Below, piece after piece: positions 29,520-37,892 of a stretch of 64,000 nt of DNA. Each line of letters begins with the position of its first letter. Positions within the stretch are counted from its first letter, which is position 1. The position numbers and the translations under genes were made by a program. Origin of the DNA: Escherichia coli (GTDB lineage Bacteria > Pseudomonadota > Gammaproteobacteria > Enterobacterales > Enterobacteriaceae). Under the pieces are notes generated by a model. The model ran no database searches. It was given only the letters and a program-made list of their open reading frames with translations, and was not told the DNA's origin. The stretch is taken from the NCBI RefSeq assembly GCF_003019035.1, contig NZ_CP027447.1; one strand, given 5' to 3'.

Positions 29520-30335
29520 CTACGAATTGATATGTTCCTTGCTGTAACGTCGCTTCCACGCAGCTGGCGTTAAGCCGGTGTGTTTGCGAAAAATCTGCCG
29601 GAAATAGCCGACGTCATTAAACCCGCACAACGCCGCCACTTCCGTGAGCGATCGCGCTTCGCTAATTAACAGCTTTTCGGCTTCGCGCACCCGCTGGCGG
29701 TGGATTGCTTCTGTTAACGTCAGATGAAACACCCGCCGATAGACGCGCCCAAGATAATCGGCATTGCAGTACAGCTCGCGGGCTAAAAGCGCCGTGGAAA
29801 GCGGGCGGTGATATTGCGTGCGAATCAGTTTCTGCGCTTTCCAGGCAAGGGTGGTGCCTGCACCATCGGCCTGTTCATCAAGACGCGCGTCACGGGTGAG
29901 CTGCTGCAAAATCAGCAGCACAATAAACTCCAGCGCCGGAGTGCGTTGATGCTTTTCCTGTTCGCTTAAGAACTGGCGAAACAAGGCCACCAGCACCTGC
30001 GGATCGGCAACCTTAGTTTGTTGCGGCACGCTAAGATGAGTGAGCCAGCGCGGGTCGCTATCCGGCGCTTTAACCTCAAAATGCAGCCAGTAAAATTTGA
30101 GATCGGCGGGAAAATCCTCTACCCCAACATGCTGTCGGTTCGGCCAGAGTAATAAACTCTCTCCCGCATCGACCAGAAATATCCGCTCTTCTTCCTGAAT
30201 CGCTAATCGACCTTTTTCGACAAAGATAATTTCCCATGACTCCAGCCGCCTTGCCGGATGCCTCCCAACGCCACGGGAAATAAATAATCCACCATTTTGC
30301 ACTTTAATCGGTAACGTCATGGATAATTCGAGCAT
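29520..30335 (-). CDS. AraC-family transcriptional regulator (cupin sensor + C-terminal AraC HTH)
   Basis: 271-aa ORF with C-terminal AraC-type HTH (...LTEVAALCGFNDVGYFRQIFRKHTGLTPAAWKRR); divergent from the transporter gene. Confidence 0.8.
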   Translation of the reverse strand: MLELSMTLPIKVQNGGLFISRGVGRHPARRLESWEIIFVEKGRLAIQEEERIFLVDAGESLLLWPNRQHVGVEDFPADLKFYWLHFEVKAPDSDPRWLTHLSVPQQTKVADPQVLVALFRQFLSEQEKHQRTPALEFIVLLILQQLTRDARLDEQADGAGTTLAWKAQKLIRTQYHRPLSTALLARELYCNADYLGRVYRRVFHLTLTEAIHRQRVREAEKLLISEARSLTEVAALCGFNDVGYFRQIFRKHTGLTPAAWKRRYSKEHINS

Positions 30336-30383
30336 TGATATGTAATTTCCCGCTTATTCATTAATGATTAAACACATTACCTT

Positions 30384-30398
30384 TTGATTATTAATCAA
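30384..30398. promoter_or_regulatory. Perfect palindrome TTGATTATTAATCAA in the AraC / transporter divergent intergenic region (candidate operator)
   Basis: 15-bp perfect inverted repeat flanked by further ATTAAT direct repeats. Confidence 0.35.
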
Positions 30399-30560
30399 AA
30401 ACATTAATTTCACCTGATCCATTTCACACTTTTAAATTCAGGTCGGAATCGTCACCTTTTTTTACTCTTTTCTCGCCTTGTTGATATTCCCGTTCACGGC
30501 AGAATTAATCAGGTCATTGCAATAAAACTAAAAATTGCTCCCTATTCACGAGGAATATCT

Positions 30561-31961
30561 ATGACCTCTACACCGATTACTGCCGCTGATATCGCTAAAG
30601 GTAAAATTGACGATGCGTTATCTGTACGGGAAAAAATAAGCTACGGCCTGGGTGACGCAGGCGGCACCGTAATAACTTGCCTGATCATGAACTTTCTCAC
30701 CTTTTTCTACACCGACGTTTTTGGCTTAACTCCGGCGCTGGTCGGCACGCTGTTTATTGCACTGCGCGTGTTTGATGCCATCTCCGACCCGGTGATGGGC
30801 GTCATTGCCGACCGGACGCAAAGTCGCTGGGGGCGCTTTCGTCCGTGGCAGTTGTGGATTGCCATTCCCATCGGCATTATCGGCATCCTGACGTTCACCG
30901 TGCCAGATGCCAGCATGGGAGTAAAAATCGCCTGGGCGTTCGGTACTTACCTGCTCCTTTCAGTCGGTTATACCGCCATCAACGTACCGTACTGCGCGCT
31001 GATCAACACCATGACCACCCGCCACAATGAAGTGATCTCCTGCCAGTCCTGGCGATTCGTTCTCTGCGGCGTAGCGGGATTTCTGGTTTCGGTTGGCCTG
31101 CCGTGGATGGTGGATCTCTTCGGTCAGGGTAATGCCGCGCGCGGCTATCAACTGGGCGTCGGCGTGCTGTGCGCCATCGCTGTGGTGATGTTCCTGTGCT
31201 GTTTCTTCTGGGTTCGTGAACGGGTGCCACTCTCCACAATGGGGAAATTTACCCTGCGCGAACATCTTGCCGGGCTGCGGAACAACGACCAACTGCTGCT
31301 GATGCTGGTCATGTCTTTCCTGCTGATTAACGTCTTTAATATTCGCGGCGGTGGGTATATGTACTTCATTACCTACGTCTTACAAGGCAGTACGGGCTAC
31401 ACGTCGCTGTTCTTCACTATGGTCACCTTCGCCTCCATTATCGGCTCGGTGATTGTCAGCCCGTTAACGCGGCGTTTCGATACCGTCAAAATTTACTACT
31501 ACACCAACCTGCTCCTCGCCGCGCTGGCGGTGTTGATGTGGTTCCTGCCTTCTGGCCCGGCTTATCAAACGCTGTGGCTGGCGGTGATCCTCGGTAATGG
31601 CGTGATTCTTGGCTTCACATTGCCATTGCACTTCTCATTGATGGCCTTTGCCGATGACTACGGCGAGTGGAAAACCCGCGTACGTTCTTCCGGCATGAAC
31701 TTCGCCTTCAATCTGTTTTTCATCAAACTGGCCTGGGCCTCCAGCGCCGGGATCATCAGCCTGCTGTTTATTTTTGTCGCCTACCAGCCAGGCGTGGAAA
31801 ACCAGACCGCCAGTTCGCTTGGCGGGATCACAGCAATGGAAACATTGCTGCCTGCGCTGTTCCACCTGCTGCTGGCGATGGCGATCCGCTTTTGCAAACT
31901 CAATAACCCTATGATGTCACGCATTGCTAGCGACCTGCGTCAGCGTCATGTACAGCCTTAA
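30561..31961 (+). CDS. GPH-family (glycoside-pentoside-hexuronide) sugar:cation symporter, MFS superfamily
   Basis: 466-aa polytopic ORF with the GPH signature [25 protein letters not shown]. Confidence 0.8.
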
Positions 31962-31971
31962 GGAGCACAAG

Positions 31972-33951
31972 ATGAACATTTCGGAAGTCGATCTGCATAA
32001 ACTGACGGTCAGCGATCCGTTCCTCGGTCAGTACCAACAACTGGTCCGCGACGTGGTGATTCCTTATCAGTGGGATGCCTTGAACGATCGTATCCCAGAA
32101 GCGGAACCCAGCCATGCGATTGAAAACTTTCGCATTGCCGCCGGACTTCAGGAGGGTGAATTTTACGGGATGGTGTTTCAGGACAGCGACGTCGCCAAAT
32201 GGCTGGAAGCGGTAGCCTGGTCGCTGTGCCAGAAGCCGGACGCCGAACTGGAAAAAACCGCCGACGAGGTGATTGAACTGATCGCTTCCGCCCAGTGCGA
32301 AGATGGCTATCTCAATACTTACTTTACGGTAAAAGCGCCCGAAGAACGCTGGAGCAATCTGGCGGAGTGCCATGAACTTTACTGCGCCGGTCATCTGATT
32401 GAAGCCGGAGTCGCCTTCTTCCAGGCCACGGGCAAGCGGCGCTTGCTGGAAGTGGTTTGCCGTCTGACCGATCATATCGACAGCGTATTTGGTCCAGGTG
32501 AAAGTAAGTTACACGGTTATCCTGGTCACCCGGAAATTGAACTGGCACTAATGCGCCTGTATGAAGTGACCGAAGAGCCGCGCTACCTGGCGCTGACGAA
32601 CTATTTTGTCGAACAGCGTGGTGCGCAACCGCACTATTACGACCAGGAATATGAAAAGCGCGGGCAGACCTCGCACTGGCACACCTACGGCCCGGCGTGG
32701 ATGGTGAAAGACAAAGCCTACAGCCAGGCACATTTGCCCATCGCACAGCAGCAAACCGCCATTGGTCACGCGGTACGTTTTGTCTACCTGATGACCGGCG
32801 TCGCGCATCTCGCCCGTTTAAGTCACGATGAAAGCAAGCGTCAGGATTGCTTGCGGCTGTGGAACAATATGGCCCAGCGTCAGTTATATATTACCGGCGG
32901 CATTGGCTCACAAAGCAGCGGCGAAGCGTTCAGCAGCGATTACGATCTGCCGAATGACACGGTTTACGCCGAAAGTTGTGCTTCCATCGGCCTGATGATG
33001 TTCGCCCGACGAATGCTGGAAATGGAAGGCGACAGTCAATATGCCGATGTGATGGAGCGCGCGCTGTACAACACTGTGCTCGGCGGCATGGCACTGGATG
33101 GCAAACATTTCTTCTATGTGAATCCGCTGGAAGTACATCCAAAATCGCTGAAATTCAACCATATCTACGATCACGTTAAGCCGATCCGCCAGCGTTGGTT
33201 TGGCTGCGCTTGTTGTCCGCCAAATATCGCCCGCGTACTGACCTCGATTGGTCATTATCTCTACACGCCGCGTGAAGATGCGTTGTATATCAACATATAC
33301 GCAGGAAACAGCATGGAAGTGCCGGTAGAAAATGGCACGTTGCGCCTGCGGGTTAGCGGGAACTATCCGTGGCAGGAACAGGTGACAATTGCGGTTGAAT
33401 CGCCCCAGCCGGTGCGTCATACGCTGGCTTTACGTCTGCCGGACTGGTGCACACAGCCGCAGATCATATTGAATGGGGAAGAGGTCGAGCAGGATATTCG
33501 TAAAGGGTATTTGCACATTACCCGCGAATGGCAGGAGGGCGACACGCTGAATCTAACTTTGCCAATGCCAGTACGTCGCGTTTACGGTAACCCGCTGGTG
33601 CGTCACGTCGCCGGAAAAGTGGCGATTCAGCGCGGCCCGCTGGTGTATTGCCTGGAACAGGCCGACAACGGCGAGTCACTGCATAACCTGTGGCTGCCCG
33701 CCGATGCGCCATTTACGACATTTGAAGGCAAGGGATTGTTCCGCCATAAGATCTTAATCCAGGCACCGGGTTACCGGTATGAACAGAGCAATCCAGAGCA
33801 GCAACCGCTGTGGCATTACGACAGTGCGCCAGCCAAACGCCAGCCGCAAACTCTGACGTTTATTCCGTGGTTTAGCTGGGCTAACCAGGGTGAAGGCGAA
33901 ATGCGGATCTGGGTGAATGAGGAAAAGCATTGCCATCCGGAGGTTGGATAA
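31972..33951 (+). CDS. Glycoside hydrolase family 127 (DUF1680; beta-L-arabinofuranosidase HypBA1-like); start at the ATG preceded by AGGAG
   Basis: 659-aa protein; E-S-C and C-A-C-C-P-P-N motifs about 77 residues apart match the GH127 Glu/Cys3 zinc-cysteine catalytic centre. Confidence 0.75.
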   Translation: MNISEVDLHKLTVSDPFLGQYQQLVRDVVIPYQWDALNDRIPEAEPSHAIENFRIAAGLQEGEFYGMVFQDSDVAKWLEAVAWSLCQKPDAELEKTADEVIELIASAQCEDGYLNTYFTVKAPEERWSNLAECHELYCAGHLIEAGVAFFQATGKRRLLEVVCRLTDHIDSVFGPGESKLHGYPGHPEIELALMRLYEVTEEPRYLALTNYFVEQRGAQPHYYDQEYEKRGQTSHWHTYGPAWMVKDKAYSQAHLPIAQQQTAIGHAVRFVYLMTGVAHLARLSHDESKRQDCLRLWNNMAQRQLYITGGIGSQSSGEAFSSDYDLPNDTVYAESCASIGLMMFARRMLEMEGDSQYADVMERALYNTVLGGMALDGKHFFYVNPLEVHPKSLKFNHIYDHVKPIRQRWFGCACCPPNIARVLTSIGHYLYTPREDALYINIYAGNSMEVPVENGTLRLRVSGNYPWQEQVTIAVESPQPVRHTLALRLPDWCTQPQIILNGEEVEQDIRKGYLHITREWQEGDTLNLTLPMPVRRVYGNPLVRHVAGKVAIQRGPLVYCLEQADNGESLHNLWLPADAPFTTFEGKGLFRHKILIQAPGYRYEQSNPEQQPLWHYDSAPAKRQPQTLTFIPWFSWANQGEGEMRIWVNEEKHCHPEVG

Positions 33952-34020
33952 GGCGCTCGCGCCGCATCCAACGTAGGGAGCACATTGCCTGATGCGACGC
34001 TTAACGCGTCTTATCAGGCC
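33936..34020. repeat. BIME-like pair of REP palindromic units overlapping the 3' end of the GH127 gene
   Basis: GCCTGATGCGACGCTTAACGCGTCTTATCAGGCC (33987-34020) is a canonical REP; an imperfect inverted copy lies at 33940-33975. Confidence 0.6.
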
Positions 34021-34062
34021 CACGAGTCGGTGCAGTTGCCCGCTAACCATCGAAACGCGAGA

Positions 34063-34473
34063 TTAAACGCCCGGCAATACACGCCGGGCAGCTTCTGCCA
34101 GAAACGCACTTCTGTTGGCGTAGTCTGGGTTATTGCGCACGTAGGTATCAATCTTGTTCAGTAACCTTTTCGGCATCGTAATATTGATACGTTCAGCCCG
34201 ACCTTCGAACTGATTCATATTGATATCCACCAGCAACCATTGCCCGCCAATAAAGTCCTGCGCACGCTGGACCAGATGTGTTTCCACAGAGCCTGGAAGC
34301 GGCAACTCTTCATCCATCTCGCATAAGGTTTCGAAGTGCGCGACCAGTGCACTTCGCGCATCCTGGAAAGCGTTGTCCAGCGTATCACCAGCAAAATAAC
34401 AGCCTGGAACATCAGGGAAAAAACCGCTGGCGCTGCCGTCAGGATCACTGTGGATATAGGCGGGATAAAACAT
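34063..34473 (-). CDS. hicB: HicB-family antitoxin (N-terminal RNase H-like fold, C-terminal ribbon-helix-helix)
   Basis: 136-aa ORF 16 bp downstream of the hicA-like gene; C-terminal RHH-like segment ITMPKRLLNKIDTYV... Confidence 0.75.
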   Translation of the reverse strand: MFYPAYIHSDPDGSASGFFPDVPGCYFAGDTLDNAFQDARSALVAHFETLCEMDEELPLPGSVETHLVQRAQDFIGGQWLLVDINMNQFEGRAERINITMPKRLLNKIDTYVRNNPDYANRSAFLAEAARRVLPGV

Positions 34474-34489
34474 ATTGCCTCCTGAAATT

Positions 34490-34675
34490 TTAAAATGTTA
34501 AACCAGCCTGACGCCCAATTTGCGCCAGCGTACCGGGCTTAATATCTTTTTTAGGGTGCGGAACCGTCACCAGACCCGGATGAACAGGGTGGCGGAACTG
34601 ATGATGACTGCCACGGGTTCGAATATGTTCCCAGCCATGCTGCTTCAGGATGGCGATCACGTCTGCACTTTTCAC
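34490..34675 (-). CDS. hicA: HicA-family mRNA interferase toxin (YcfA-like); apparent GTG start
   Basis: 61-aa ORF with the GSHH motif (IRTRGSHHQFRHP); toxin-first gene order. Confidence 0.75.
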   Translation of the reverse strand: MKSADVIAILKQHGWEHIRTRGSHHQFRHPVHPGLVTVPHPKKDIKPGTLAQIGRQAGLTF

Positions 34676-34950
34676 ATCCCTGCCCTTCCATGATTATACA
34701 CACGATACACACAATTAGTGATAACAATCACGATAGCGCGATTTATATGGGCCGTCAGGGGGATAAAGTTGACTCAGGAATGCCGCTCGGAAGAAGAATA
34801 ACGGTGTGCAGTAACTTGTTGAAAAGATGCGAGGAGACTCGTAATTAAGTTCAATCAATATTCAGTCATTCAAGACGTAGACATTTGAATTGGTAAAACG
34901 CGTAAGCGTCGCATCAGGCAATGAATACCCAATGCGACCAGCTTCTTATA

Positions 34951-36596: not shown

Positions 36597-37892
36597 TTAC
36601 AGCGGATAATGCGCGAAGTACACGGCTTGCTGGTCATTAATTTTCTTCTCTTGCGCAAACCCTTCTTTAACAATTGTCCGTAAATCAGCTCGAGCCGTAT
36701 TATCAGAGACGCCCAGGCTCGCGCTAATTTCAGCAACTGTGTACTCTTTCCCCGGATTGGCGAGCATCACATTCAGGAGCGTTACCTGGCGCGGATTCAG
36801 GCGTTTAAGCACACCAGAGCTAAACAGCACACTATCGAGTTTTGCGCTTCGTTGTGTAATTTCATCGATATGCTGCTGCCAGTTTTGCAGAGCACGTTTA
36901 ATGACACCCGCCTGATATTCAAGGAAATAAGTCAGATCCATACCATCTGATTCAGTGTACTGGTAGCTGGCGGCATATTTGACCGGTGCAGCATGAAGCA
37001 AACGGCTGATGGAAATATATTTAAAGACATCGTAGCCCGATTTCAGCATATACCAGTAAAACAGCGCCCGACTGGTGCGCCCGTTGCCATCCCGAAACGG
37101 ATGTTCATGGGCCAGCATAAAATGCAGAATGCAGGCACGGACCAACGGATGAATATACCCTTCATGGCTGTTTAACCACTGGCAAACTTTTTCCAGCCGT
37201 TCCGGTAACAATGCCGCAGCGGGCGGTTGATGCACTATACTGCCATCATAGTCGGCGATCACAACATCATCTGTTTCACGAAATTCTCCCGGACGATATT
37301 TCGCGTCATTGATTCCACCCATACCAATGGCATGTAACTGGCGAATAAGCGCAGGTGTCAGCGGTTCTGCGAGTAAGTGCGGAATTTCCGCCATCAGCCG
37401 GGCATTTCCCGCAATCATATGCTCGTCTTCAGTGCGTGGCGACCGCCCTGTTTCCAGCATTTTTCTCGCCACCAGCGTTGTAGTATTCGCACCCTCCAGC
37501 TGGGAGCTGGTGATCGGCTCTTCCAGGCGTAACTGGCTTAACTCGGCTCCGGCCCCGCGTAACCGTTCAGTCTGATCTTTCAGCGCCAGCGCGGTAGCAC
37601 GTTTGTCGACAAGCTCGCACGCTTCTGCAATCACCGGGGTAATGTTGAATCCGGCCTGTTCACCCGCTTCATTGCAATAATTAATTCGTTGGATCGCCGC
37701 GTTGCGCGCCAGACGGGTAAGCGTCCACGCCACATCGACGTTTTCTCCTTTTTTGATGCGGTACTGCAACTCATCAAAAGGCAGATAACGTCCTTTTTCA
37801 TCGGTAACCCGGTTAAAGCGCAGGTGGGCCAGGAGTTCCTCACCCGATAAGTGTGATAAAGGAATAAGTCCGGGAGGTGATTTGATAGCCAT
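36597..37892 (-). CDS. Class II Fic-domain protein (putative AMPylase) with N-terminal inhibitory motif and C-terminal helix-turn-helix-like region
   Basis: 431-aa ORF; canonical Fic motif [12 protein letters not shown]; inhibitory-helix motif S-S-Q-L-E-G; C-terminal winged-helix-like segment. Confidence 0.85.

Follow-up and report, generated by a model that had tools for sequence, protein, structure and literature searches.

A Class 4-type hicAB toxin-antitoxin pair as an old resident of the aldB region of Escherichia coli, with signs of recent exchange between lineages

The window (the whole stretch of 64,000 nucleotides of Escherichia coli DNA that was analysed) carries at positions 34063 to 34675 a pair of genes that is very probably a working chromosomal type II toxin-antitoxin operon, a 'classical' hicAB with a ribbon-helix-helix (RHH) HicB (Class 4), long resident at its site and recently exchanged. 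Over the part that was searched, the sequence is 100% identical to the chromosome of E. coli strain SCU-301. In the proposed course of events, hicAB would have been deleted in most E. coli lineages and exchanged recently, as a cassette of about 0.7 kb, among members of the genus Escherichia. The features of the locus itself are the following.

34490-34675, minus strand: hicA, encoding a 61-aa HicA-family toxin with a GTG start codon; Gly22 and His24 are present
34474-34489, minus strand: hicA-hicB spacer of 16 nt, read from the sequence
34063-34473, minus strand: hicB, 136 aa with an ATG start codon; N-terminal partial RNase-H-like HicB domain and C-terminal RHH
34068-34090, minus strand: GC-rich hairpin followed by TTTAAT, spanning the last hicB codons; a weak terminator-like site

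The first-pass annotation had pointed to a 61-aa ORF with a GSHH motif and a GTG start, lying 16 nt from a 136-aa HicB-like ORF, and both the ORF (RGSHHQF in the translation) and the gap were found as described. The two genes lie on one strand with hicA upstream and no terminator between them, which is the arrangement of a bicistronic operon. The gap is 14-16 nt in most orthologues, and the hicA-hicB order with a similar gap was seen in nearly all orthologues in which the hicA frame was correctly called. For the comparison of upstream DNA given below, orthologous hicA sequences were taken from tblastn coordinates. A strong Shine-Dalgarno sequence (AGGAGG) was read at 34483-34478, 4 nt ahead of the hicB ATG. 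One terminator-like hairpin was found against a mean of 1.2 in shuffled sequence, which is not significant alone. The Rfam scan returned nothing inside or antisense to hicAB, its sole match being a REP-derived naRNA4 in the flank. RefSeq/PGAP places two coding sequences at exactly these coordinates and names them HicA family toxin (WP_000833473.1) and HicB family antitoxin (WP_000499742.1); identical sequences occur under these names on at least 1,000 public contigs. The pair is already annotated and is a routine member of a well-described toxin-antitoxin class with solved homologues.

HicA matched the Pfam family HicA_toxin (PF07927) with 82.7 bits (cut-off 27, E 1.9e-23) over profile positions 2-58 of 58, and HicB matched HicB_lk_antitox (PF15919) with 123.6 bits (cut-off 27, E 6.6e-36), the whole profile being covered in both cases. 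These scores stand far above the gathering scores and agree with the families that had been proposed for both genes; since they are far beyond chance level, the ORF pair is not a chance occurrence. The NCBIfam scan gave no model match for either protein. By sequence, the closest solved structure to HicA was that of Burkholderia pseudomallei (4c26/6g26, E ~1e-16). The AF2 model of HicA (pLDDT 94.4) has the order alpha-beta-beta-beta-alpha (H3-12, E16-21, E24-28, E35-38, H47-57), and its top seven Foldseek matches in the PDB were all HicA, the best being 6g26_F (TM 0.89, rmsd 1.0 A). A small ORF without similarity to the HicA fold would have spoken against the original reading; this is not what was seen, because the best Foldseek matches were HicA structures alone, and the predicted model places HicA in the dsRBD-like alpha-beta-beta-beta-alpha fold. 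Among the 19 aligned HicA homologues, Gly22 never varies and His24 is kept in 18; His24 aligns to the mutated H24A position of 4c26. Gly22 and His24 are the residues needed for toxicity or RNase activity (PMC11594946). By analogy, the HicA described here would be a small ribosome-independent RNase of dsRBD fold that uses His24 together with Gly22, and free HicA would be expected to arrest growth.

HicB residues 1-133 align to B. pseudomallei HicB (6g1n/6g26, 4e-25) and residues 1-132 to Yersinia pestis HicB3 (4p78, 5e-21), the RHH included in both cases: residues 93-133 fall on the RHH of 6g1n and 4p78. In the AF2 model of HicB (pLDDT 89), the order beta-beta-beta-alpha-alpha-beta is followed by two helices (102-114 and 121-135), which come after an 'AERINIT' ribbon segment. 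The ribbon strand is unformed in the monomer model, as is to be expected because such a strand pairs only in the dimer. Foldseek matched the model to full-length HicB structures of the RHH type (6g26_A, 3e-11, 134 columns), and the N-domain to 6g1c and 4p78_A with target-normalised TM (TMt) values of 0.78-0.86 and rmsd of 1.8-2.4 A. By these alignments and the predicted model, HicB has a partial RNase-H-like N-domain and, as the first-pass annotation had stated, an RHH at its C-terminus. The ribbon residues A93, R95, N97, I98, and T99 are invariant across the aligned HicB homologues, and one truncated member of the HicB cluster carries the name 'CopG family'. Homology suggests that HicB neutralises HicA and binds DNA: the N-terminal domain would bind HicA and mask its active site, and the C-terminal RHH would bring about dimerisation or tetramerisation and repression of the operon.

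On sequence and predicted structure, the pair fits a HicAB type II toxin-antitoxin of Class 4, that is, with a C-terminal RHH on HicB. Class 4 hicAB with an RHH HicB is one of the two 'classical' classes (Gerdes 2024, PMC10865869). B. pseudomallei HicAB (4c26, 6g1n, and 6g26) likewise has hicA ahead of hicB; its HicA is 52-54% identical to the HicA described here (E 1e-16, TM 0.89) with Gly22 and His24 at equal positions, and its HicB is about 35% identical over the full length with the same two-domain architecture. It differs in genus and genomic context, and it has been assayed for toxicity, persistence, and HicA-driven release of HicB from DNA, whereas the pair in the window is known from its sequence and from models. 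Y. pestis HicA3-HicB3 (4p78, 4p7d) also has the RHH on HicB (aligned over residues 1-132, 5e-21); its HicA3 has weak similarity to the HicA of the window (1e-4), its hicA-hicB spacer measures 174 bp against 16 nt, and its operators are 15-bp inverted repeats, in contrast to the direct TGTGTAT repeat that is conserved upstream of the present pair. In Y. pestis, hicA3B3 has a single promoter upstream of hicA, with its main operator lying across the -10 box (PMC11594946).

The K-12 pair (hicA b4532 and hicB b1438; structure 6hpb) shares the superfamily, the gene order, and the overall logic with the pair in the window. K-12 HicA (NC_000913.3) has no significant similarity to the HicA of the window (E 0.011), and K-12 HicB is similar only across the N-terminal 66 aa (32% identity), the match to 6hpb also being confined to residues 1-66. 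This limit is consistent with the helix-turn-helix that K-12 HicB has at its C-terminus in place of an RHH. The loci differ as well, K-12 hicAB lying at 32 min and the present pair in the aldB region. A K-12-type HicAB (Class 3, HTH HicB) was rejected on the HicA and HicB comparisons, and the earlier remark that the two pairs differ held when the sequences were compared. A biofilm study of hicAB in ExPEC PPECC42 was reportedly made by Hou et al. in 2023.

The genes beside hicB form the following cluster.

29520-33951, plus strand: AraC-family regulator, MFS transporter, and GH127 (beta-L-arabinofuranosidase-like) genes, all intact

Along the window, sgbE, the AraC-family regulator, the MFS transporter, and GH127 (plus strand) are followed by hicB, hicA, aldB, a Fic gene, and yiaY (minus strand). 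The order AraC-MFS-GH127-hicB-hicA-aldB is common to the window, Escherichia albertii (species assignment taken from the source names of the records), and Yokenella, the latter with a yiaY-aldB-hicA-hicB-GH127 order identical to that of the window. More widely, hicAB stands beside GH127 in convergent orientation in Yokenella, Enterobacter, Lelliottia, Citrobacter, Pseudocitrobacter, Trabulsiella, Pluralibacter, and Phytobacter, and aldB is also nearby in most of these genera. Orthologues outside E. coli are 74-85% identical for HicB and 66-81% identical for HicA. Because its gene order is common to other genera and to E. albertii, the window has the ancestral layout and K-12 a derived one. In Enterobacteriaceae, hicAB has long occupied the aldB-GH127 interval and is no island-edge newcomer. 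The suggestion that it sits at the junction of an accessory island was for this reason not upheld, given the synteny in E. albertii and Yokenella, the hicAB-GH127 linkage in at least 8 other enterobacterial genera, and the derived state of K-12; the word 'accessory' stands in the sense of a presence/absence polymorphism.

Several genes around the pair vary in presence or position. A 431-aa Fic-family gene (window 36597-37892, minus strand) lies between aldB and yiaY; it is present in the window, O157, and E. albertii, and absent from K-12 and some other E. coli. Between hicA and aldB, some E. coli and E. albertii genomes have a solitary gene of 359 aa with an HSDR_N domain, annotated as 'type I restriction endonuclease', and one genome has an IS there instead (positions of these insertions: L004 8165-9244, L008 4882-5961, L039 6245-7324, and L038 5291-6564). 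Insertions thus recur between hicA and aldB. In Pseudocitrobacter a yiaW-yiaT block separates aldB from hicA, and in Escherichia it separates hicB from GH127, so either the block or hicAB has changed sides; Enterobacter and Lelliottia have a yiaT-like gene alone between aldB and hicA.

Gain and loss within E. coli were counted in 5,426 complete genomes. Intact hicAB at the aldB site was found in 505 of them, the AraC-MFS-GH127 cluster in 2,313, yiaTUVW in about 3,725, and K-12-type hicAB in 4,254. As 91% of the complete genomes have no intact copy, the pair is dispensable, and from the 2,313 genomes with the cluster against 505 with intact hicAB it follows that hicAB does not travel with the GH127 cluster. 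The interval from GH127 to aldB takes one of four forms: (A) that of the window, GH127-hicBA-aldB; (B) that of O157 and strain 1105, GH127-yiaTUVW-hicB stub-aldB; (C) that of K-12, which is like (B) minus most of AraC-MFS-GH127; and (D) GH127 directly followed by aldB with one BIME between them. The stub corresponds to the following segment of the window.

34035-34146, minus strand: stub-homologous segment, comprising hicB codons 110-136 and 28 nt downstream, which survives in K-12, O157, and others

K-12 has 83% identity to this segment over 113 nt, and a 49-nt core (34098-34146) is present at 98-100% in about 3,397 genomes that have no intact hicAB. The breakpoint of the stub is identical in K-12, O157, strain 1105, and Escherichia sp. 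MOD1, and a 12-nt internal deletion is common to the first three and is not found in MOD1; in E. whittamii the breakpoint lies two codons further upstream. Since they keep this 3' stub of hicB, K-12 and about 3,400 other E. coli are deletion derivatives. In K-12, the stub consists of the last 27 hicB codons (locus L002, 8001-8101) in the gap between yiaW and aldB (NC_000913.3, 3754429-3754972), where the reference annotation has nothing; it does list ysaC (AraC remnant) and ysaD (GH127 remnant). K-12 also carries the inserted yiaTUVW block. The intact AraC, MFS, and GH127 genes of the window are the functional counterparts of the K-12 fragments ysaC and ysaD.

These data bear on a different account, in which hicAB arrived recently, as an addiction or abortive-infection module, at the edge of an accessory island (AraC-MFS-GH127) and stabilises that edge. 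The structural variability of the sgbE-aldB interval, with its four arrangements, would suit such a module, as would the HSDR_N 'type I restriction endonuclease' gene or IS next to hicA in some genomes, the anti-phage roles proposed from HicA contexts (PMC10865869), and the recent exchange of the cassette between lineages that is described below. The account is nevertheless judged unlikely: the same layout is found in E. albertii and Yokenella, and hicAB is linked to GH127 in many genera with divergences that match the flanks; the GH127 cluster is kept without hicAB, as the counts given above show; and the hicB stub of K-12-type genomes marks a loss and not an original absence. The searches for signs of mobility also speak against it. 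Full-length matches in the plasmid collection occurred only in 4.9-Mb records, which are evidently chromosomes, and HicB homologues in the phage collection were distant (at most 43% identical). Neighbourhood annotation gave no integrase, and neither an att site nor a copy on a mobile element was found. No PADLOC-DB 2.0 family matched HicA or HicB at E <= 0.01, a result that does not of itself exclude a defence role. A module carried by a mobile element was rejected as a candidate in view of the missing plasmid copies, close phage copies, and integrase and of the REP elements that bound the cassette.

The divergence of the pair was compared with that of its neighbours, using E. albertii loci L038/L039 and E. 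coli loci L003/L004/L008. Between the window and E. albertii, dS was 0.34 for GH127, 0.36 for aldB, and 0.034 for hicB, and hicA was identical at 186/186 nt; for the cassette overall dS was about 0.02, against 0.35 in the flanks. This amounts to 3 synonymous differences in 135 hicAB sites where about 38 would be expected from the flanks (P ~2e-15). Within E. coli, the synonymous divergence of the cassette was 3- to 15-fold below that of GH127 and aldB (P 6e-7 to 1e-3), and none of the E. coli and E. albertii alleles compared differed at any of the 186 nt of hicA. The tract of low divergence extends over about 34060-34750, that is, the cassette alone (~0.7 kb), and divergence is about 10 per 100 nt immediately inside GH127. 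Constraint on synonymous sites does not account for this, because hicB of Escherichia sp. E1V33 has a dS of 0.355, on a par with the flanks; hicAB of this strain is 92-93% identical to that of the window, and its flanks are 92.6% identical to K-12. The confinement of low dS to the cassette points to an exchange limited to it, and the simplest reading of the sequences is that the ~0.7-kb cassette was recently exchanged, or swept, among Escherichia lineages at a site that is itself ancient. Present in some genomes and absent from others, the pair also bears signs of having passed recently between lineages. The cassette is flanked as follows.

33942-34020, plus strand: REP/BIME element on the GH127 side with two hairpins; Rfam naRNA4 / REP325-type, 71.6 bits, above the gathering score
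34891-34930, strand not assigned: REP element on the aldB side of the cassette

The two REP elements are inverted around the cassette, and genomes with an empty site have one BIME with about 50 nt between its REPs (L007 5925-6047) and an IHF-like central motif. It is conceivable, though doubtful, that hicAB is a selfish or defence cassette that moved recently between E. coli and E. albertii into a fixed BIME-embedded site, perhaps by a REP-primed process; if so, such movement would be a route by which toxin-antitoxin pairs spread without a mobile element.

The DNA upstream of hicA contains three features of interest for expression.

34693-34698, minus strand: perfect TATAAT -10 box, 17 nt upstream of the hicA GTG, with no recognisable -35
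34696-34711, minus strand: TGTGTAT-CG-TGTGTAT tandem repeat overlapping the -10 box, a candidate HicB operator
34718-34739, minus strand: conserved upstream feature, of which the GCGCTAnnGTGAT box occupies 34739-34727 (consensus tGCGcTA..GTGAT)

Of 17 enterobacterial orthologues, 14 keep the TATAAT; at its thresholds, the consensus promoter scan gave no full sigma-70 promoter, and no canonical -35 was seen. Within otherwise unconserved non-coding DNA of the 17 orthologues, GTGTGTAT-NN-TGTGTATAAT is nearly invariant across genera (the TGTGTAT repeats of the window lie at 34711-34705 and 34702-34696). Conserved as well are the GTG with which hicA starts, a GAAGGA-like Shine-Dalgarno sequence, and the GCGCTAnnGTGAT box. 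The distant homologues of Massilia, Janthinobacterium, and Avibacterium carry GTGTGTATAAT (ACACAC) upstream, which in Massilia belongs to a GTGTGTAT-A-ATACACAC palindrome. Throughout the set of sequences that was compared for the upstream motifs, R95, N97, and T99 of the RHH ribbon do not vary. Because the TGTGTAT repeats are conserved over the -10 box and the ribbon residues are invariant, the repeats are taken as a candidate HicB operator; an operator over the -10 box would parallel the main operator of Y. pestis (PMC11594946), and HicB would probably repress its operon at this place. The GCGCTAnnGTGAT box extends in E. coli to GTGA-N6-TCAC (34731-34718), which resembles a CRP site. It may, speculatively, be a CRP-type site, or else a weak second promoter with a TAnnGT -10 and a cTGAC 17 nt upstream of it.

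With 17 nt from the end of the -10 box to the GTG, the transcript leader would be only about 10 nt long. The closeness of the -10 box to the hicA start recalls the geometry of the K-12 promoter P2. In K-12, the P2 transcript lacks the hicA ribosome-binding site (PMC7167474). The short leader and GTG of hicA, set against the ATG and AGGAGG of hicB, should bias synthesis towards the antitoxin; in the proposed mechanism the toxin would be kept scarce relative to the antitoxin by the conserved GTG and very short leader on one side and by the ATG and perfect AGGAGG of hicB on the other.

The 64-kb window has one TGTGTAT-NN-TGTGTAT motif, the one at the hicA promoter; the motif was found at least once in 32 of 100 shuffles, so its occurrence is not significant by this measure. 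The idea of a HicB regulon was dropped, as no further copy of the motif was found in the 64-kb window. The position of this one copy, at the promoter of hicA itself, also weighs against domestication of the pair, in which HicB would mainly regulate the transcription, or HicA the transcripts, of GH127 (arabinofuranosidase) or aldB. Domestication would explain the long-term synteny of hicAB, and for a toxin-antitoxin module the link to GH127 is unusually stable from genus to genus; hicAB is, however, convergent with GH127 and not co-transcribed with it, and about 1,800 genomes keep GH127 without hicAB, which together make this a most improbable explanation.

A toxin-antitoxin operon that still functions is what the substitution pattern suggests. 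Wherever dS was unsaturated, dN/dS of hicAB was 0.07-0.12 (dS is saturated between genera), and the pair is under purifying selection across genera. Lesions in relatives fall mostly on the toxin. Enterobacter chuandaensis has H24P in HicA and a mutated -10 box; two Enterobacter assemblies (L011 and L019) have hicA missing or partial with hicB intact; and in Escherichia sp. E1V33 hicA is frameshifted and hicB intact, in a draft assembly in which the frameshift could be a sequencing error. Lelliottia nimipressuralis, for its part, has a broken hicB. Decay of the toxin first is the pattern expected were HicA truly toxic, and would be an indirect indication that it is. The toxin-inactivating lesions in several orthologues of other genera, together with the loss of the pair by most E. 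coli, could instead be read as the mark of an inactive relic, a decaying pseudo-toxin-antitoxin kept by chance and devoid of toxin activity. There is very little likelihood of this for the pair in the window: both ORFs are intact with G22 and H24 conserved, dN/dS is about 0.1 across genera, HicA is identical in all E. coli and E. albertii alleles compared, and the promoter, start codon, and Shine-Dalgarno sequence are conserved.

For the preferred reading, that of a functional and long-resident hicAB operon, the comparison first of all corrects the direction of the indel: K-12 is a deletion derivative with an unannotated hicB stub between yiaW and aldB. A toxin-antitoxin pair in conserved synteny across enterobacterial genera is unusual for modules that are usually treated as mobile, and the drop in synonymous divergence limited to the cassette could exemplify the persistence of a toxin-antitoxin pair through loss and re-acquisition.
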